From: a phage
Length of the DNA stretch: 64,000 nucleotides
Reading direction: 5' to 3' (one strand)
Sequence record: PZ534512.1
The notes beneath the pieces are model-generated. The model worked only from the letters and a program-made list of their open reading frames with translations, searched no databases and had not been told where the DNA came from. The translations under genes and the position numbers were made by a program. Of this stretch, positions 2,804 to 55,110 are shown piece by piece. Each line of letters begins with the position of its first letter. The stretch's first letter is position 1.

Positions 2804-3277
2804 ATGAAATCATATACTCAATTTTTAAATGAAGCGGTGTTAAATGAAGCATCTAGCACCGAAATTCAAGCTGTCGCAAAAGCAGCCATTGCAGCGGGTA
2901 AATATTCTTATAAAGATGCTTCTGATGAATCGCGATTCCAGTTCGCACGCGACATGAAAGCGGAAGGATTTACGGGAAATGCAGTTAGTATGGCCTGGAA
3001 AAGTTTAGTTGCTACTGGCGCTGCTTTTGCAAAGGCTTCGGGTAAACCTGCTCCTAAAGCAGATCCTAAAGTCGCACAAGAGAAAAATATTGTTAAAGGA
3101 ATTATCTCCAAATATGAAGCTATCCTTAAAGAGCTTTTAGTAATCAAAACTGAAGGCCAAAAACTAGCTCGTGCTTATAGTTTCAAAGATAACCCACATG
3201 CTCACTCTCTTGAGTATGTTGAAGACATTCAAAAAATTATTAAAGACCGCATTTGGTCTGCTAAACAAATCAAATAA
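2804..3277 (+). CDS. internal-protein-like capsid-targeted protein (157 aa)
   Basis: N-terminus MKSYTQFLNE/AVLNE fits T4 CTS pattern with L-x-E protease sites; AGGAAA RBS; own late promoter. Confidence 0.6.
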   Translation: MKSYTQFLNEAVLNEASSTEIQAVAKAAIAAGKYSYKDASDESRFQFARDMKAEGFTGNAVSMAWKSLVATGAAFAKASGKPAPKADPKVAQEKNIVKGIISKYEAILKELLVIKTEGQKLARAYSFKDNPHAHSLEYVEDIQKIIKDRIWSAKQIK

Positions 3278-4452: not shown

Positions 4453-5046
4453 ATGAACACACTGAAGAAAATTGTTGAGTTTATTCGCACTAAACTTGGT
4501 TCTGCTATGGCTAAAAATCTATCTGTTGAAGAACAGTATACTGCTGCGGCAGCAAAACTACTTGATAAGATTAAAGATCTAAAAACTGCTTCTGTTAAAT
4601 CTATTAATGAAGAAAAGCGTATTCGTGAACTTATTGTCGAAAAGAATAAGCAGGCCGAATCAAAAGAGCGTGAAATTCGCAAGCTTCTTTCGGAAGGTCA
4701 AGATGTAACAATGCATGCTAAACTTGGTTTACTATATCGTCGAACAGCTGAGCAGTTGACTACTAAAGCTGATGGTTATGCTGAAATGCGAATTGAAATC
4801 GCCAAGAAAGTAGTTGAATTGGATGATGCTCGCCAAGAACTTGCAGTTAAATTGGAATATATCCGTGAAACTCGTGCAGCAAATGCCCTTGGAATTAGTA
4901 CTGCTGATGATGTAGTTGAAATTGCAGCACTGACTAAGGTTGATATTGAAGATACTCTTGCTCGAGTTGAAACCTTTAATGGCAATATTTCTGGGGTTGA
5001 AACTACCTCTGCCGATGTTCAGGAATATATTAATTCTCTGAAATAA
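4453..5046 (+). CDS. coiled-coil hypothetical protein (197 aa)
   Basis: AAGGAAATA RBS; followed by UUCG hairpin at 5052-5067. Confidence 0.55.
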
Positions 5047-5087
5047 TGATAAGGGGCTTCGGCCCCTATTACTTGGAGTAAGTAGGA

Positions 5088-5696
5088 ATGAAAATGCAAA
5101 GTGATTTCAATTCAATGTTTGAAGAGTTCCAAAGACAGGTTGATGTTCCAGATCAATTATTAAATGCTCTTAAACGTATGGCAGAAGGACGTAATTATTA
5201 TTGGGGTTCTTCATATGAAACTGATGAAAGTCTTTCTAGAGGATTTTCTAGAGGTAAAAAGTCTTTAATACGTCCTGGAATACTTATTAACAGTATTGAA
5301 TCAATTCATTTATTAACATGCGATTTTGACGTTGAATTTACTGATTTTGTTTCTCCTGAATGGACGGTCTGTTATTTAAACGACGATTATGATTATCTTG
5401 GCGTTTATAGTTTAAGTGATGCACGGTTTAAACGTAATTTACAAAAGTCAAATTTATTTTATATTGATACTACTGTAAAATTTCAGGGCAAGAAATATTT
5501 CTTTACTCTTATAGTTGATTCTGAAACGAAGCATGAAAATAAACGTATTCTTAGTAAAAAGAATATCTTAACTATTGTCGATGATCTTTTTGATAAATTC
5601 GTAGAAAATCCCAATTTTGAAAGCGATTTATTATTAGAAAAATTTGTGAAGGAATGCAGAGAATATGTCAAAGCCATCAATGTATCTTCCAAGTAA
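5088..5696 (+). CDS. hypothetical protein (202 aa), ECR-tail family
   Basis: AGGAATG RBS; C-terminus KFVKECREY. Confidence 0.5.
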   Translation: MKMQSDFNSMFEEFQRQVDVPDQLLNALKRMAEGRNYYWGSSYETDESLSRGFSRGKKSLIRPGILINSIESIHLLTCDFDVEFTDFVSPEWTVCYLNDDYDYLGVYSLSDARFKRNLQKSNLFYIDTTVKFQGKKYFFTLIVDSETKHENKRILSKKNILTIVDDLFDKFVENPNFESDLLLEKFVKECREYVKAINVSSK

Positions 5697-6057: not shown

Positions 6058-6413
6058 ATAAAGTTAAATATTCGTTTCCAGAGGCACTATTAATTCTTGC
6101 CGTATCAGCATTTGCAGCTCTTGCAGGTAGTCTTATTGGATTGTTAATTGACTGTTTTATTTTAAACATCCGTAGTAACGTCAGCGGTATAATAGATATA
6201 ATAGAAGTTTGGAGTGAACTTCATTATACTATAGCGATTTCATTATTTTCATTCTTTGGTACAATGTTATATTTTCATTATGATAATTTTAAAATAAATT
6301 GGCAAAGAAAAAAGGATTACAAAATACAATTAAAGGAATATAATAGCTACATGTCTTATATTGAAAAAGAATCAATGGAAGAGTTTGTGAGTGATTGTAG
6401 GAAAATTAAATGA
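6039..6413 (+). CDS. 2-TM membrane protein (124 aa), ECR-tail family
   Basis: overlapping start; C-terminus EFVSDCRKIK. Confidence 0.5.
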   Translation: MQKPKLNKVKYSFPEALLILAVSAFAALAGSLIGLLIDCFILNIRSNVSGIIDIIEVWSELHYTIAISLFSFFGTMLYFHYDNFKINWQRKKDYKIQLKEYNSYMSYIEKESMEEFVSDCRKIK

Positions 6414-6898
6414 TTTTAAAAACTCGCTGGTATGATTTAGATGATGGGGATGATGGCATTTCAGTTGATAGAGTTGACTGGAGTGGCTGTTCCGAAGATA
6501 TGAAAAAAATGTTAATTAGGGAGTTTAGAATGGGATATCAAGCAGCTAAGCCATCTACTATAACAGATGATAAGTTCGTATGTATTCATAATGGTCGCGC
6601 TAAGTTAACGAACGCTGATTGGTTCACAGATAAAATTATGATTCTGTGGTATATTATTAGTCTTCCTGTGACATCATTCGTATTTTACTTTTTTATAAAA
6701 AATCCAATGGACAGAATAGGAGATTGGATTCTTTTAACCATACTTGTTAATATTTTTACAGCAGCAATATTATCTGGGATATGGTGCGTGTTCATTGAAA
6801 TGCCATGGCGGTTACGCAGACAGCAAAAGATTTTTGATGAAAAGAAATATACTCAAAATTTAAATAACTTTATCACTGAATGCAGGAAATTAAAATGA
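6410..6898 (+). CDS. membrane protein (162 aa), ECR-tail family
   Basis: ATGA overlap; two TM helices; C-terminus NFITECRKLK. Confidence 0.5.
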   Translation: MILKTRWYDLDDGDDGISVDRVDWSGCSEDMKKMLIREFRMGYQAAKPSTITDDKFVCIHNGRAKLTNADWFTDKIMILWYIISLPVTSFVFYFFIKNPMDRIGDWILLTILVNIFTAAILSGIWCVFIEMPWRLRRQQKIFDEKKYTQNLNNFITECRKLK

Positions 6899-7335: not shown

Positions 7336-7866
<531 letters not shown>

Positions 7867-7954: not shown

Positions 7955-8272
7955 ATGAAAACATATCAAGAATTTATTGCAGAATCTGCTGCAGGACAGC
8001 GTGTAGAAGGCGGTTATATCTGGATTGAACAAGTTGAGCCGCCAAGTCGCACTTCTACAGGTAAATGGAAAATCACTGTTGATGGTCCTGGTGGTAAACG
8101 TAGGACTCTTAAAGAAATTAACGGGTACTATGAAGAAGCTCTTTCTGACGCGGGTACTTATATGATGCAAATCATGATTAAAAACCCAGAAAATCGTTTT
8201 GCGGCTAGAGTTTTCCGCCGTATTGGAAATAAGCTTTATGATGCATATTCTAAAAACTTCCCTAAAGAATAA
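7955..8272 (+). CDS. internal protein (IPII/IPIII family), CTS-bearing
   Basis: N-terminus MKTYQEFIAE; basic 105-aa protein; downstream of e as in T4. Confidence 0.75.
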   Translation: MKTYQEFIAESAAGQRVEGGYIWIEQVEPPSRTSTGKWKITVDGPGGKRRTLKEINGYYEEALSDAGTYMMQIMIKNPENRFAARVFRRIGNKLYDAYSKNFPKE

Positions 8273-8288
8273 AAATTAAAGGATACAC

Positions 8289-8762
8289 ATGAAAACATAT
8301 CAAGAATTTATTACTGAAGCAGCTATTAATTCTCAAATTATTGCTGAATCTTTTACTGATCTTTTGAAATTTAAAAAAGGTCAAAAAATCACTGCTGTAT
8401 TGGATGATGGTACAGAAATTGAGATGGATGTACAAGGATATAATTATGCAGTAGATGGAAAACTGTATAATAAATCTCATGCTAAATTTGATTCATTTGA
8501 CGACTTTGTTAATACAGTTGAAGATGAAAAAACTCGTCGATCCATTGCAACTGGTGATGCTAAGGTTCTTATGGCACATGGTCATGAACGCATTCGCGCT
8601 AAACAGAATAAAATGGGTGAAGATAATTTTGCATTAGTTGGTTATCAATCTGGTAAACAAACTTATGGCTATCAACGTACTGCTACAATGTATAATAAAA
8701 ATGGTAAAATTGCCTTTGTAAATAGTAAAGGTTCTATTCAGTACGTTAAATCGTTCAAATAA
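8289..8762 (+). CDS. internal protein (IPII/IPIII family), CTS-bearing
   Basis: N-terminus MKTYQEFITEAAINSQIIAE with two L/I-x-E sites; 157 aa. Confidence 0.75.
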   Translation: MKTYQEFITEAAINSQIIAESFTDLLKFKKGQKITAVLDDGTEIEMDVQGYNYAVDGKLYNKSHAKFDSFDDFVNTVEDEKTRRSIATGDAKVLMAHGHERIRAKQNKMGEDNFALVGYQSGKQTYGYQRTATMYNKNGKIAFVNSKGSIQYVKSFK

Positions 8763-15883: not shown

Positions 15884-15913
15884 GTTTACAAGTTGGCAAG
15901 GTTATGGTATAGT
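15884..15913 (+). promoter_or_regulatory. T4-type early promoter
   Basis: GTTTAC-N18-TATAGT. Confidence 0.65.
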
Positions 15914-15941
15914 AATCTTGTCAACTGCCAAGGAGAAGAGA

Positions 15942-50451: not shown

Positions 50452-51879
50452 GTGGTAGAAATTATTCTTTCTCATCTCATATTTGATCAAGCTTATTTTT
50501 CAAAAGTTTGGCCATATATGGATTCAGAATATTTTGAAAGTGGTCCAGCTAAAAATACATTCAAATTAATTAAATCTCATGTCAATGAATATCATAGCGT
50601 TCCATCTATTAATGCGTTAAATGTTGCATTAGAAAATAGTTCATTTACTGAAACAGAATATTCTGGTGTAAAAACACTTATTTCAAAACTGGCTGATTCT
50701 CCGGAAGACCACAGTTGGTTAATAAAAGAAACAGAAAAATATGTTCAGCAAAGGGCGATGTTTAATGCTACGTCTAAAATAATCGAAATTCAAACTAATG
50801 CTGAACTTCCTCCGGAAAAACGAAATAAGAAAATGCCGGATGTTGGTGCTATTCCTGACATCATGCGCCAAGCATTATCAATTTCATTTGATAGTTACGT
50901 TGGTCATGATTGGATGGATGACTACGAAGCACGTTGGCTATCTTATATGAATAAAGCTCGTAAGGTTCCATTTAAACTCAGAATTCTGAACAAAATTACT
51001 AAAGGCGGAGCTGAGACTGGAACACTGAACGTTTTAATGGCTGGCGTTAACGTTGGTAAGTCATTAGGATTGTGTTCATTGGCAGCAGATTATTTGCAGC
51101 TCGGACATAATGTTCTTTACATTTCCATGGAAATGGCAGAAGAAGTCTGTGCTAAGCGTATTGACGCTAACATGCTTGATGTTTCTCTTGATGACATTGA
51201 TGATGGGCATATTTCTTACGCTGAATATAAAGGAAAAATGGAAAAATGGCGTGAGAAATCTACCCTTGGTCGTTTAATCGTTAAACAGTATCCTACTGGT
51301 GGAGCAGACGCTAACACATTCAGGTCTCTCTTGAATGAATTGAAGCTCAAGAAGAATTTTGTTCCAACAATCATTATTGTCGACTATCTAGGTATTTGTA
51401 AATCTTGCCGCATCAGAGTTTATTCAGAAAATAGTTACACAACTGTTAAAGCTATTGCAGAGGAATTGCGTGCTCTGGCTGTTGAAACCGAAACTGTTCT
51501 TTGGACTGCAGCACAGGTCAGTAAACAAGCTTGGGACTCTTCCGATGTTAACATGAGCGATATTGCAGAATCTGCTGGTCTTCCAGCAACAGCTGATTTT
51601 ATGCTTGCGGTCATTGAAACCGAGGAGCTAGCAGCTGCTGAACAACAACTCATTAAGCAAATCAAATCACGATATGGCGATAAGAATAAGTGGAATAAGT
51701 TTTTAATGGGTGTTCAAAAGGGAAATCAGAAATGGGTAGAAATTGAACAAGATTCTACTCCAACTGAAGTGAGTGAAGTAGCAGGTTCACAACAGATTCA
51801 GGCTGAACAGAATCGCTATCAAAGAAACGAATCAACTCGAGCTCAGTTAGATGCTTTGGCAAATGAATTAAAATTTTAG
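50452..51879 (+). CDS. 41: replicative DNA helicase gp41 (DnaB family)
   Basis: 475 aa; Walker A GVNVGKS; GTG start after AAGGAG RBS. Confidence 0.95.
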   Translation: MVEIILSHLIFDQAYFSKVWPYMDSEYFESGPAKNTFKLIKSHVNEYHSVPSINALNVALENSSFTETEYSGVKTLISKLADSPEDHSWLIKETEKYVQQRAMFNATSKIIEIQTNAELPPEKRNKKMPDVGAIPDIMRQALSISFDSYVGHDWMDDYEARWLSYMNKARKVPFKLRILNKITKGGAETGTLNVLMAGVNVGKSLGLCSLAADYLQLGHNVLYISMEMAEEVCAKRIDANMLDVSLDDIDDGHISYAEYKGKMEKWREKSTLGRLIVKQYPTGGADANTFRSLLNELKLKKNFVPTIIIVDYLGICKSCRIRVYSENSYTTVKAIAEELRALAVETETVLWTAAQVSKQAWDSSDVNMSDIAESAGLPATADFMLAVIETEELAAAEQQLIKQIKSRYGDKNKWNKFLMGVQKGNQKWVEIEQDSTPTEVSEVAGSQQIQAEQNRYQRNESTRAQLDALANELKF

Positions 51880-51908
51880 TTTACAAGCTGACAAGACTAT
51901 GGTATAGT
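51879..51908 (+). promoter_or_regulatory. T4-type early promoter
   Basis: GTTTAC-N18-TATAGT overlapping gene 41 stop. Confidence 0.65.
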
Positions 51909-51937
51909 AGTCTTGTTGGTTAAATGAGGAGATTGTT

Positions 51938-52120
51938 ATGGAATTGGTAAAGGTAGTTTTTATGGGGTGGTTTAAGAATGAAAGCATGTTTACTAAAGAA
52001 ATCACAATGATGAAAGATGACGTTCAATGGGCTACTACTCAATATGCTGAAGTTAATAAAGCATTAGTTGAAGCTTTCATTGATGACAAGAAAGTGTGCG
52101 AAGTGGATTGCCGAGGATAA
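51938..52120 (+). CDS. dmd: Dmd antitoxin (inhibitor of RnlA/LsoA)
   Basis: 60 aa; immediately downstream of gene 41 as in T4. Confidence 0.8.
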   Translation: MELVKVVFMGWFKNESMFTKEITMMKDDVQWATTQYAEVNKALVEAFIDDKKVCEVDCRG

Positions 52121-52121
52121 T

Positions 52122-52379
52122 ATGCATATTGTTTTATTTAAACCTACTCCGTATAACGTCAGGAAAAATACTCAATTCAAAGCACTTATTGCAGATACGT
52201 GGGAATTGGTGTTAGATATTCCAGCAGAAGAAAGTCCTCCATTTGGTCGAGTGGAATTTATTAAGTTTGCTGTACGTCCTACGAAGAGGCAGATTCGTCA
52301 GTATAAAAGGTATTTTCGTAAAATCGTTAAGCTAGAGAAACAGTTTGTAACATGTGATTACGCAGAAGTTTTAAAATAG
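52122..52379 (+). CDS. basic RNA-binding-like protein at the T4 61.4 position (TifA-like candidate)
   Basis: 85 aa from ATG after GAGGATAAT RBS; K/R-rich RQIRQYKRYFRKIVK. Confidence 0.4.
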   Translation: MHIVLFKPTPYNVRKNTQFKALIADTWELVLDIPAEESPPFGRVEFIKFAVRPTKRQIRQYKRYFRKIVKLEKQFVTCDYAEVLK

Positions 52380-52381
52380 CT

Positions 52382-52411
52382 GTTTACTTTTGTTGGAAAT
52401 TGAGATACTAT
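52382..52411 (+). promoter_or_regulatory. T4-type early promoter
   Basis: GTTTAC-N18-TACTAT then ctactgaggagattatcATG. Confidence 0.65.
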
Positions 52412-52439
52412 ATAAACATAAACTACTGAGGAGATTATC

Positions 52440-52733
52440 ATGAAAAAATTTATTTTTGCTACAATTTTTACTTTGGCTTCTTGTGCTGCTCAGCCTGCTA
52501 TGGCAGGATATGATAAAGATTTGTGCGAATGGTCTATGACTGCAGATCAGACTGAAGTTGAAACTCAAATTGAAGCGGATATTATGAATATCGTTGAGCG
52601 CGATCGTCCTGAAATGAAAGCTGAAGTGCAAAAACAGCTTAAGTCTGGTGGTGTAATGCAGTATAATTATGTTCTGTATTGTGATAAAAACTTTAATAAT
52701 AAAAATATCATCGCTGAAGTGGTAGGTGAATAA
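52440..52733 (+). CDS. sp: periplasmic protein Spackle-like
   Basis: 97 aa; signal peptide with LASC lipobox-like site. Confidence 0.6.
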   Translation: MKKFIFATIFTLASCAAQPAMAGYDKDLCEWSMTADQTEVETQIEADIMNIVERDRPEMKAEVQKQLKSGGVMQYNYVLYCDKNFNNKNIIAEVVGE

Positions 52734-53347
52734 TGCTTTATCAAATGCACAAGTGTAAAGACACGTACAAATATAAAGGTGCCCAGTGTTATATCATTAA
52801 TCGTGAAAACGCAGGTCCAGGTCATTCGCATCAATCACGGTTTGTATTCGTTAAAAATAATGAAATTATAGCAGTTGCTAATTATATGTTTGTGACCAAT
52901 GATGTTAATCCGGTGCCTTTCACGTATGACAATCTAATGGACTTGGCATATGATTATAATTGGTTTAATCATGACAATTTAGTTCATATTGAAGGCGTAG
53001 GATTTGACATCTCTTATTCTAGTTATTCGTTGTGCCCTATGAGCCGAGCTCATAAAGAGCCTGAATATTTTTCATTTCGTCGGCGTGTAGACTTTAAACG
53101 CAGCACAGAGTATGTCGGTGGAATATTTGTTAAAGATAATCGAATTACTCGCATTATTTATCCTTTGGGCTGTGGTCAAAAAGATATTGATGTTGATTTA
53201 GACTTCACTGAAAATATCATTAATCATATTGCTTCTGTGTATTTTGATATTGATCATAAAATTGTAATATGTGGATATGAATTGCCATCCGAAAAACAGT
53301 CTAAAGTAAATGTTTCTATTGATGACCAAATTTTAATGCTTTTATGA
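52733..53347 (+). CDS. hypothetical protein (204 aa; T4 61.2 position, AdfA-like candidate)
   Basis: TAATG coupling; positional assignment only. Confidence 0.4.
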   Translation: MLYQMHKCKDTYKYKGAQCYIINRENAGPGHSHQSRFVFVKNNEIIAVANYMFVTNDVNPVPFTYDNLMDLAYDYNWFNHDNLVHIEGVGFDISYSSYSLCPMSRAHKEPEYFSFRRRVDFKRSTEYVGGIFVKDNRITRIIYPLGCGQKDIDVDLDFTENIINHIASVYFDIDHKIVICGYELPSEKQSKVNVSIDDQILMLL

Positions 53348-53362
53348 ATAGAGATTAATATG
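53318..53362 (+). repeat. direct repeat copy 1 (gene-junction cassette)
   Basis: attgatgaccaaattttaatgcttttatgaatagagattaatatg. Confidence 0.85.
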
Positions 53363-53716
53363 TATAGTTCTGAATTTTCATATTTAAAAATGGAAAAAAT
53401 TTCATACGATTTCATAGATGAAAAGGTTTATTACAGTTTCCATGAACCACGTTTTAATAGTGAGGTTGGGTTTATTGTAGTAAAAGACAATTTTATTTTA
53501 AAAATATATTCAGCATTAAAGGATTTTCATTACGAAAATATTAACCTAAAATTTAATAAAGAAAACGTTCGTAATTGCGCAGTAACAATTACAGGAAATA
53601 AAGGTACATGTGTTATGCTATCCGATGAAATTAATGATTTGCTAAATGATGCAGAAAATATTACTGCGCCATCTATTGATGACCAAATTTTTAATGCTTT
53701 TATGAATAGAGGTTAA
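53360..53716 (+). CDS. hypothetical protein (118 aa)
   Basis: start and C-terminal coding both lie inside the direct repeats. Confidence 0.5.
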   Translation: MYSSEFSYLKMEKISYDFIDEKVYYSFHEPRFNSEVGFIVVKDNFILKIYSALKDFHYENINLKFNKENVRNCAVTITGNKGTCVMLSDEINDLLNDAENITAPSIDDQIFNAFMNRG

Positions 53717-53720
53717 TATG
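53675..53720 (+). repeat. direct repeat copy 2 (gene-junction cassette)
   Basis: attgatgaccaaatttttaatgcttttatgaatagaggttaatatg; one extra T and one A/G change versus copy 1. Confidence 0.85.
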
Positions 53721-53882
53721 AAAACATATAAAGAATTTATTAAAGAAGATATGGTTGCTGGAGATTCAGGTGGTAATCCTGAAAATATCTCTACTGGAAC
53801 AACATCAGGTGCTGTAGTAAATAAAGGTCCTGAACAGATTCCTAAAAAGAAAAAAGAGGAATCTAAAGAAAAAGAAGAGTAA
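53718..53882 (+). CDS. 54-aa CTS-bearing peptide (candidate packaged internal peptide)
   Basis: N-terminus MKTYKEFIKE then Gly/Lys/Glu-rich tail; GAGG RBS; coupled on both sides. Confidence 0.5.
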   Translation: MKTYKEFIKEDMVAGDSGGNPENISTGTTSGAVVNKGPEQIPKKKKEESKEKEE

Positions 53883-53884
53883 AA

Positions 53885-54913
53885 ATGTCATCAATACCTT
53901 GGATTGATAATGAGTTTGCGTATCGTGCATTGGCTCATTTACCTAAATTCACACAAGTAAATAATAGTTCAACTTTTAAATTACGGTTTAGATGCCCTGT
54001 TTGCGGAGATTCAAAAACCGACCAAAATAAAGCCCGTGGATGGTATTATGGTGATAATAATGAAGGAAATATTCATTGTTATAACTGTAACTATCATGCA
54101 CCAATCGGAATATATTTAAAGGAGTTTGAACCTGATTTATATCGTGAGTATATCTTTGAAATAAGAAAAGAAAAAGGTAAAAGTCGTCCAGTAGAAAAAC
54201 CTAAAGAACTTCCTAAACAACCTGAGAAGAAAATAATTAAATCTCTTCCGTCATGTGTTAGATTAGATAAACTGGCGGAAGACCATCCAATTATAAAATA
54301 TGTAAAAGCTCGTTGTATTCCAAAGGATAAATGGAAATATCTTTGGTTTACAACCGAATGGCCTAAATTAGTTAATAGCATAGCACCGGGAACATATAAA
54401 AAGGAAATACCTGAGCCTCGTCTTGTTATTCCAATTTATAATGCTAATGGAAAAGCTGAGTCTTTTCAAGGACGTGCATTAAAGAAAGATGCTCCCCAAA
54501 AATATATCACTATCAAAGCTTATCCTGAAGCAACAAAAATCTATGGAGTCGAACGAGTTAAAGATGGTGATGTATATGTTCTAGAAGGACCTATAGATTC
54601 ACTTTTTATTGAAAATGGTATAGCTATTACAGGTGGTCAATTAGACCTAGAAGTTGTTCCATTTAAAGATAGACGTGTGTGGGTTTTAGATAATGAACCT
54701 CGTCACCCTGACACTATTAAACGAATGACTAAATTAGTTGATGCAGGAGAAAGGGTTATGTTTTGGGATAAATCTCCCTGGAAATCAAAAGATGTTAATG
54801 ATATGATTAGAAAGGAAGGTGCAACCCCTGAACAAATTATGGAATATATGAAAAATAATATTGCCCAGGGGTTGATGGCTAAAATGCGGCTATCTAAATA
54901 TGCTAAGATTTAA
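53885..54913 (+). CDS. 61: DNA primase gp61
   Basis: 342 aa; N-terminal zinc ribbon CPVCGDS...CYNC; TOPRIM region. Confidence 0.93.
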   Translation: MSSIPWIDNEFAYRALAHLPKFTQVNNSSTFKLRFRCPVCGDSKTDQNKARGWYYGDNNEGNIHCYNCNYHAPIGIYLKEFEPDLYREYIFEIRKEKGKSRPVEKPKELPKQPEKKIIKSLPSCVRLDKLAEDHPIIKYVKARCIPKDKWKYLWFTTEWPKLVNSIAPGTYKKEIPEPRLVIPIYNANGKAESFQGRALKKDAPQKYITIKAYPEATKIYGVERVKDGDVYVLEGPIDSLFIENGIAITGGQLDLEVVPFKDRRVWVLDNEPRHPDTIKRMTKLVDAGERVMFWDKSPWKSKDVNDMIRKEGATPEQIMEYMKNNIAQGLMAKMRLSKYAKI

Positions 54914-55110
54914 ATTAACCCAACTAAAGCAAATGCTAAATCTACGAATGTATCAAGAGTAACTACTGGAATATTAATACCATGTGCAATTGCAACAGGT
55001 GATAAAATAAAGTTCCAGAGTAAAATTCCTACCATAGCAGAAATAGTAAAAGCTATACGCTTTTTATTACCTTTTATGGCATTAATAAGTGCCATTAATT
55101 TTTGTACCAT
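54910..55110 (-). CDS. antisense small membrane protein (66 aa)
   Basis: only intergenic minus-strand ORF; AAGGAGG 4 nt upstream of ATG; two hydrophobic helices; stop overlaps gene 61 stop. Confidence 0.5.
   Translation of the reverse strand: MVQKLMALINAIKGNKKRIAFTISAMVGILLWNFILSPVAIAHGINIPVVTLDTFVDLAFALVGLI

Follow-up and report, generated by a model that had tools for sequence, protein, structure and literature searches.

A block of short genes lies between the helicase gene 41 and the primase gene 61 of T4-like phages and was named the "anti-TA island" (TA, toxin-antitoxin) by Srikant, Guegler and Laub in 2022 (PMC9391042). Its T4 order is dmd (gene 61.5), tifA (61.4), sp (61.3) and adfA (61.2); gene 61.4, tifA, encodes a ToxN inhibitor, gene 61.2, adfA, encodes anti-DarT factor A, and dmd-tifA is transcribed from an early T4 promoter, an additional promoter being located downstream of tifA (PMC9391042). 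Spackle, the product of sp, inhibits the gp5 lysozyme in the periplasm and acts in superinfection exclusion (PMC7677548). AdfA expressed alone from a plasmid neutralises DarT1, and the substitution R164H in the RB69 protein turns on DarT1 binding and neutralisation (PMC11825919). Here we compare with these systems the corresponding block, positions 51,938-53,882, of a 64,000-nucleotide (nt) stretch of phage DNA (record PZ534512.1), which we call the window. The window phage is a member of the genus Tequatrovirus (T4-like); the 2-kb region matches 630 phage records, the best match being Escherichia phage teqhad (97.4%). Since the T4 island was already named and analysed in 2022, its presence here adds nothing new; the points that remain are an AdfA-family member lacking in T4, an invariant C-terminal tail that this member shares with AdfA, and a repeat-mediated polymorphism with three haplotypes. 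The two genes concerned, the second encoding the AdfA-family member of 118 amino acids (aa), are adjacent:

52733-53347, + strand: adfA (gene 61.2), 204 aa
53360-53716, + strand: 118-aa AdfA-family gene (RB32ORF033c), without T4 counterpart

The only T4 match of the 118-aa open reading frame (ORF) is to the C-terminal half of gp61.2, that is, AdfA (34% identity over 103 aa). With the Pfam AdfA family (PF23813) the protein scores 32.2 bits against a cut-off of 27, aligning to profile positions 113-211 only. Searched against 5.8 billion proteins, a profile of the 118-aa family picked up AdfA (E 3e-7, coverage 83%), and alignment of the two families by hhalign gave a probability of 97.7% and an E value of 1.4e-12. 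An AlphaFold2 model of the 118-aa protein, with a predicted local distance difference test score (pLDDT) of 81.5, contains a β-β-β-β-β-α-β order once, and the AdfA model contains it twice. When Foldseek was run with the 118-aa model, it linked the protein to a 212-aa AdfA (E 4.7e-5) and to a 145-aa family (E 8e-4), tying the three together and to nothing else. Taken together, the profile comparisons and predicted folds identify the 118-aa protein as a single-unit paralogue in the AdfA family: instead of the apparent two-unit architecture of about 210 aa, it has 118 aa and one β5-α-β unit. Because a 39-residue core of the 118-aa protein, with the motif G-x-I-x-V-K-D-N-x-I, a loop and F-x-x-x-N-x-x-x-x-A, matches either half of AdfA, N-terminal or C-terminal, AdfA itself may have arisen by tandem duplication of a unit that is present once in the 118-aa and 145-aa proteins. 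The helix that carries the DarT1 specificity position in AdfA (residue 164; His, Arg or Asn) aligns with an equivalent helix in the 118-aa family, where the position is occupied by an invariant Cys73. Replacement of the AdfA His/Arg by Cys suggests a different binding specificity, and a target other than DarT1 is likely.

The tail common to these proteins reads S[IV]DDQIFNAFM[NK]R[GD] and forms the C-terminus of AdfA (T4, RB69 and 12 further alleles), of the 118-aa family and of the 145-aa family. Over 12 tail codons, the window differs from phage DK-13 by five synonymous changes and one non-synonymous change, and from RB69 by three synonymous changes and none that is non-synonymous; synonymous changes thus dominate, indicating selection on the peptide and not on the DNA only. 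A scan of IMG/VR with a degenerate tail motif returned 16 loci, on large contigs of 51-172 kb (most about 170 kb) apart from one 6.7-kb fragment. Each complete tail-bearing ORF belonged to the AdfA, 118-aa or 145-aa family of T4-like phages; the motif was C-terminal in every case, and a single nucleotide separated the stop codon from the ATG of the gene that follows. The motif was found in none of 185,579 bacterial and archaeal genomes scanned. The model of the 118-aa protein shows the tail as a helix, predicted with low confidence, after a disordered linker, a layout typical of a docking peptide, and the common tail may therefore be a shared docking or effector peptide. A sliding-clamp (gp45) binding motif was considered for the tail and rejected, the resemblance of SIDDQIFNAFMNRG to the C-termini of gp43 (SLDFLFG) and gp55 of the window being too weak.

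The 118-aa protein is identical to RB32ORF033c of phages RB32, RB33 and RB14, and its gene is found in approximately 300 Tequatrovirus records at an identity of at least 76%. In a HMMER scan of 1.84 billion representatives, the family formed three clusters at 50% identity; two long repetitive proteins also matched and are regarded as spurious. More distant homologues, at 38-48% identity, are encoded by Gaprivervirus phages and Yersinia phage P8, and 29 positions including C73 are invariant. Synonymous differences in the gene exceed non-synonymous ones, and the ORF is intact and conserved, as would be expected of a functional gene. In phage T2 the gene is kept and follows directly after sp, adfA being missing. 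The T2 copy is annotated as "61.2", 108 aa, from an internal Met, and is 99% identical over residues 11-118. The start of the gene in T2 is ATGCAT (MHSSEF..), whereas the record annotates the internal Met.

The 118-aa gene is bracketed by two copies of a direct repeat, each made up of tail-coding sequence, the next ribosome-binding site and an ATG:

53315-53362: upstream copy of the 49-bp direct repeat, covering the adfA 3' end and the start signals of the 118-aa gene (ribosome-binding site and ATG)
53672-53720: downstream copy of the 49-bp direct repeat, covering the 3' end of the 118-aa gene and the start signals of 61.1 (ribosome-binding site and ATG)

The copies share 47 of 49 positions in blastn (95.9%; one mismatch and one gap column, a missing T; E 8e-16), and a repeat scan of the window recovered the same pair as families D1 and D2. 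The first gene of the pair ends in ..RD and the second in ..RG both in teqhad and in Gaprivervirus. The T4 adfA gene has the ..RG tail of the downstream copy and runs straight into 61.1, which fits deletion of the 118-aa gene by recombination between the repeats; the direction of such events is one that we infer. Haplotypes were counted in phage records by junction-specific searches:

adfA to the 118-aa gene (window type): 154 records
adfA to 61.1 (T4 type): 189 records
sp to the 118-aa gene (T2 type): 141 records

All three are common and about equally so. The two genes occur independently of each other, which makes it less likely that the 118-aa gene is a dead remnant or depends on AdfA as an obligate partner. 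About half of the sequenced Tequatroviruses, including the classic T2, thus carry an AdfA-family gene that T4 lacks. In T2 (locus 2590-2660), the adfA deletion has fused sp, at its end, with the adfA tail region through a short GAATA microhomology; the last residues of Spackle are changed as well (..NNHR versus ..NIIAEVVGE).

The window adfA gene encodes a protein 97.5% identical to T4 gp61.2 over 201 aa, with a full-length, two-unit match to Pfam PF23813 (434 bits; profile positions 1-204 of 211). The first-pass annotation of the window, made from the sequence alone, had regarded the assignments of the 85-, 204- and 118-aa proteins as positional only and had suggested that they may be inhibitors different from those of T4. 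Pairwise BLASTP, gene by gene, overturned both statements for two of the three: at 97.5% and 97.6% identity to T4 AdfA and TifA, the 204-aa and 85-aa proteins are the same inhibitors as in T4, and the suggestion survives solely in the sense that the 118-aa protein lacks a T4 counterpart. Like T4, and in contrast to RB69 with its R164, the window AdfA has a histidine, His165, in NIINHIASVYF (positions checked), and judged by this sequence the gene is an "active-type", DarT1-neutralising allele. Across Tequatrovirus AdfA alleles, the residue at the 164 position is His, Asn or Arg. The alleles are mosaic, the N-terminal third being T4-like (MLYQMHKCK..) or RB69-like (MIYYMHKNPPFKYGKF..) and the C-terminal part T4-like, which suggests recombination within adfA.

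The window copy of adfA differs from the rest of its family at the 3' end. A 1-nt deletion in a run of five T residues turns the conserved tail ...DDQIFNAFMNRG (...DDQIFNAFMNRD) into ...DDQILMLL and moves the stop codon to a point 12 nt before the following ATG, so that the window AdfA lacks the conserved C-terminal tail that is kept in all 12 aligned homologues. The exact 204-aa protein was not present in a collection of 15 billion proteins, nor was the frameshifted DNA junction present in IMG/VR; judged from the sequence, the frameshift could be a private mutation or could reflect a sequencing error in the homopolymer. A genuine frameshift would leave the window AdfA without the most conserved element of its family. 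If the 49-bp repeats recombined downstream of the T run, the adfA tail would be mended and the 118-aa gene lost.

The ORF listing of the window contains six successive + strand ORFs between genes 41 and 61, and the description of six short genes in this interval was right in coordinates, lengths and labels, as were the T4 order and names given with it (dmd, 61.5; tifA, 61.4; sp, 61.3; adfA, 61.2), which agree with the T4 record and PMC9391042. Alongside adfA and the 118-aa gene, the listing gives:

50452-51879: gene 41 (helicase)
51938-52120, + strand: dmd (gene 61.5), 60 aa
52122-52379, + strand: tifA (gene 61.4), 85 aa, with its ATG internal to a listed 103-aa TTG ORF
52440-52733, + strand: sp (Spackle, gene 61.3), 97 aa
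53718-53882, + strand: gene 61.1, 54 aa, the "CTS peptide"
53885-54913: gene 61 (primase)

We conclude that the six ORFs are real genes rather than chance ORFs. All six match a Pfam or PHROG family, and homologues of each occur in hundreds of phage records; a GAGG-type ribosome-binding site lies upstream of every one, and several are coupled to or overlap the preceding stop codon. Where the six-gene block departs from teqhad, T4 or T2, it does so mostly at synonymous sites. None of the six proteins has a family in NCBIfam, and an Rfam scan of 51500-54200 at E <= 1 gave no match. The gene order of the T4 record (dmd, 61.4, sp, 61.2, 61.1, 61) is that of the window apart from the 118-aa gene. 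The earlier annotation had held that near-identity of every ORF to characterised T4 proteins would speak against its reading; such near-identity was found for five of the six ORFs and not for the 118-aa ORF.

The window Dmd differs from T4 Dmd by one substitution, K45E (98.3% identity), matches Pfam PF17587 over its full length (154 bits against a cut-off of 27) and matches the Protein Data Bank (PDB) chain 5hy3_B, "Antitoxin Dmd", at E 7e-37; it would be expected to bind and neutralise the RnlA and LsoA toxins. The 85-aa protein is 97.6% identical to T4 gp61.4, TifA (differences C61Y and I83V), and matches Pfam DUF7279 (PF23945) with 72 bits. Its central basic stretch is RPTKRQIRQYKRYFRKIVK, and its ATG lies 1 nt past the dmd stop codon; a basic cluster and a position downstream of dmd in one operon are the TifA architecture reported in PMC9391042, where T4 TifA was found to inhibit weakly at its native dose. 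The window TifA presumably inhibits ToxN. Spackle is 97.9% identical to T4 Sp and matches Pfam PF25676 (T4_Spackle) over its full length (150 bits), with PDB matches to 6x6o (E 3e-61), 6xc0 and 7cn6. The mature chain in 7cn6 begins at residue 23 of Spackle, in line with a cleaved leader and periplasmic export. Profile searches of PDB sequences gave no match for TifA, AdfA or the 118-aa family. In RB69, the superinfection immunity genes imm and imm.1 are placed between tifA and sp (RB69 locus 5012-5690). A 105-aa ORF, RB69ORF040c, situated between gene 41 and dmd is conserved in RB69 (6153-6470) and Gaprivervirus (DK-13 903-1220) and is not present in the window or in T4.

Gene 61.1 encodes a 54-aa protein 96.3% identical to T4 gp61.1. 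Its layout comprises a decapeptide resembling a capsid targeting sequence (CTS), a core resembling the arm of the capsid protein gp23 and a Lys/Glu-rich tail. The decapeptide, MKTYKEFIKE, contains an I-x-E cleavage motif and is 8/10 identical to the internal-protein N-termini encoded at window positions 7955 and 8289, the DNA being 90% identical over 30-31 nt. Its description as a CTS peptide therefore holds for the N-terminus and not for the body, which is gp23-like, conserved and unlike internal proteins. Among all PDB sequences T4 gp23 was the sole match, residues 4-39 of gp61.1 aligning with gp23 residues 59-94, and E10|D11 of gp61.1 coincides with the gp23 maturation site E65|A66, at which the deposited chains of mature gp23* start. 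In all, 1433 records across the Straboviridae contain the core, DMVAGDSGGNP.NI.TGTTSGAVVNKGPEQIP, and the 92-aa RB69 gp61.1 has a different N-terminus, without CTS, so that conservation in gp61.1 reverses the usual pattern of a conserved CTS and a hypervariable body. By these alignments gp61.1 is a near-core miniature copy of the gp23 cleavage site and N-terminal arm, and it could act as a processed mimic of that arm. Being conserved across the Straboviridae and gp23-like, gp61.1 is unlike an accessory counter-defence gene and equally unlike a typical hypervariable internal protein. No treatment of gp61.1 was found in the literature searched. Elsewhere in the window, the two ORFs directly after the lysozyme gene e (7372-7866), at 7955-8272 (105 aa, MKTYQEFIAE) and 8289-8762 (157 aa, MKTYQEFITE), begin with the T4 internal-protein capsid targeting sequence, and a third ORF at 2804-3277 (157 aa) starts with the CTS-like MKSYTQFLNEAV. 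The three may encode internal-protein alleles different from IPI, IPII and IPIII.

The promoter scan placed an early-type promoter, TTTACA-17-TATAGT with an upstream TG, at 51880-51908, ahead of dmd:

51880-51921, + strand: early-type promoter of the dmd-tifA operon, overlapping a hairpin

The hairpin (51886-51921; 15 bp, -18.9 kcal/mol, z = -6.15) holds the -10 hexamer in its loop. A second copy of the promoter-hairpin occurs at window positions 15885-15921 (37 nt, 86% identical to the copy upstream of dmd). We take the promoter-hairpin upstream of dmd to resemble the promoter-stem-loop cassettes proposed for modular shuffling of T4-type genomes. On the other side of the block, a hydrophobic 66-aa ORF on the - strand (54910-55110) shares 4 nt with the end of gene 61 (54910-54913) and continues downstream; it corresponds to the hypothetical protein teqhad_44 of teqhad, RB69 has an ORF (ORF029w) at the equivalent position, and its product is probably a small membrane protein.

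How the block works as a whole can be read in several ways. We incline slightly towards the account in which the window carries the published anti-TA island in an RB32-type haplotype, supplemented by a 118-aa inhibitor with another target. Early transcription from the dmd promoter and from the promoter downstream of tifA would supply small stoichiometric binders, one for each target: Dmd for RnlA/LsoA, TifA for ToxN, AdfA for DarT1 (weakly in the case of the T4 allele) and Spackle for the gp5 lysozyme of superinfecting phages. The 118-aa protein would likewise be a stoichiometric toxin binder of the AdfA kind, aimed at another DarT allele or another toxin. Homologous recombination between the 49-bp repeats would delete or re-insert its gene and so give rise to the T4-type (adfA only), T2-type (118-aa gene only) and window-type (both) haplotypes. 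The account starts from gene identities, paralogy, repeat, haplotype frequencies and protein-level selection on the tail, all of which the comparisons establish. The reading of the 118-aa protein as a toxin-binding inhibitor with a different target is based on homology, genomic context, purifying selection and presence/absence polymorphism, and taken singly we would put it just short of an even chance. Several points weigh against the account. When the 14-aa tail is removed, the 39-residue core aligns to AdfA at E ~1e-3 with a probability of 18-20%, so that the paralogy rests largely on the tail and the predicted fold; the AdfA model is of moderate quality (pLDDT 69.9), and its two-unit reading comes from secondary-structure order and motif repetition. 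T4 does not need adfA to resist DarTG1, and its AdfA binds DarT1 weakly (PMC11825919), which leaves the natural targets of the AdfA family unsettled. No mention of the 118-aa gene, and no experimental tie of its product to a defence system, was found in the literature searched. Finally, two of the six genes, sp and 61.1, are not counter-defence genes, which weakens the "island" label: three of the six (dmd, tifA and adfA) have documented anti-toxin activity, so that the counter-defence label first given to the whole block fits these three and not Spackle or gp61.1.

The last point is the basis of a different explanation, that the block is a plastic region of non-essential early genes of mixed function between 41 and 61, shuffled at repeats and promoter hairpins, in which the 118-aa protein could have any host-takeover role. 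In its favour are the role of Spackle in superinfection exclusion, the presence of imm and imm.1 in the RB69 block, the near-core and capsid-like nature of gp61.1, the variation of gene content between genera and the repetition of the promoter hairpin in the window; but anti-toxin activity has been demonstrated experimentally for three of the block genes, one of which is a homologue of the 118-aa gene, and we consider this explanation unlikely. Less probable still is that the 118-aa protein acts together with, or modulates, the tail-bearing protein encoded upstream of it (AdfA, or the 145-aa protein in Gaprivervirus), for example in a hetero-oligomer formed through the shared unit or tail. The same ordered pair, a gene ending in ..RD followed by a 118-type gene ending in ..RG, occurs in Tequatrovirus (teqhad) and Gaprivervirus, the two genes are translationally coupled (TAA-T-ATG) and the proteins have a fold in common. 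However, T2-type genomes carry the 118-aa gene without adfA, T4-type genomes and RB69 carry adfA without the 118-aa gene, and AdfA from a plasmid needs no partner to neutralise DarT1 (PMC11825919). That the 118-aa ORF is a decaying, functionless partial duplicate of adfA, kept only through the repeats in a non-essential region, would agree with its covering only the C-terminal half of AdfA, with an identical 14-aa tail, and with its absence from T4-type genomes, which has no known consequence. It is nevertheless highly improbable, since the ORF is intact in about 300 records, retains 38-48% identity and 29 invariant positions in other genera, differs mostly at synonymous sites, has a confidently predicted fold (pLDDT 81.5) and is retained in the 141 T2-type records that lost adfA.

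A wider form of the inhibitor account would make AdfA, the 118-aa and the 145-aa proteins a modular inhibitor superfamily, each with a variable recognition unit, in one or two copies, that sets the target, a flexible linker and an invariant DDQIFNAFM peptide that binds one conserved partner. The 118-aa protein would then be a stand-alone inhibitor of a defence toxin with which no counter-defence gene of T4 has so far been connected, and the tail-coding repeat would be at once a functional peptide and a recombination site for swapping modules. We regard this as rather doubtful. The interpretation given to the block at first is partly right and largely already published, and what the comparison contributes lies with the 118-aa gene. 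T4 without adfA and adfN is still resistant to DarTG2, implying that T-even phages must have more anti-DarTG factors (PMC11825919). The 118-aa gene cannot be the further factor of T4, which lacks it, and is an obvious anti-DarTG candidate in T2-like and RB32-like phages. The tail common to the three architectures provides a testable handle on how AdfA-type proteins work, and the 49-bp repeats account for the presence/absence polymorphism of the 118-aa gene.

Set beside the 61.5-61.1 block of T4, the window block is alike in its place between genes 41 and 61, its order, its strand and the early promoter before dmd, and the five common proteins are 96-98% identical; it differs in the added 118-aa gene between adfA and 61.1 and in the frameshifted tail of adfA. 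The 118-aa gene is the same gene as RB32ORF033c and T2 "61.2", with no difference in the protein, T2 differing by its adfA deletion and its annotated start. Compared with the internal proteins of T4, gp61.1 has the matching CTS N-terminus and a predicted cleavage site for the gp21 protease, but it has only 54 aa, is encoded among early genes beside the primase gene and has a conserved rather than a hypervariable core. With AdfA, the 118-aa protein has in common the GxIxVKDN hairpin motif, the residue-164 helix (RB69 numbering) and the DDQIFNAFM tail, and like AdfA it probably is a small toxin binder that lacks an enzymatic domain; it differs in having one unit and not two, a Cys at the specificity position and weak similarity beyond the tail. 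The closest parallel to the two adjacent AdfA-family genes is the pair encoding 145-aa and 116-121-aa proteins in Gaprivervirus and Yersinia phage P8, the second of which, at 43-48% identity, is the orthologue of the 118-aa gene. As in teqhad, both genes of that pair have the common tail, the first ending in ..RD and the second in ..RG; unlike in Tequatrovirus, the upstream partner is the single-unit 145-aa protein and not the two-unit AdfA, and, unlike in the window, an extra 63-aa gene precedes 61.1.

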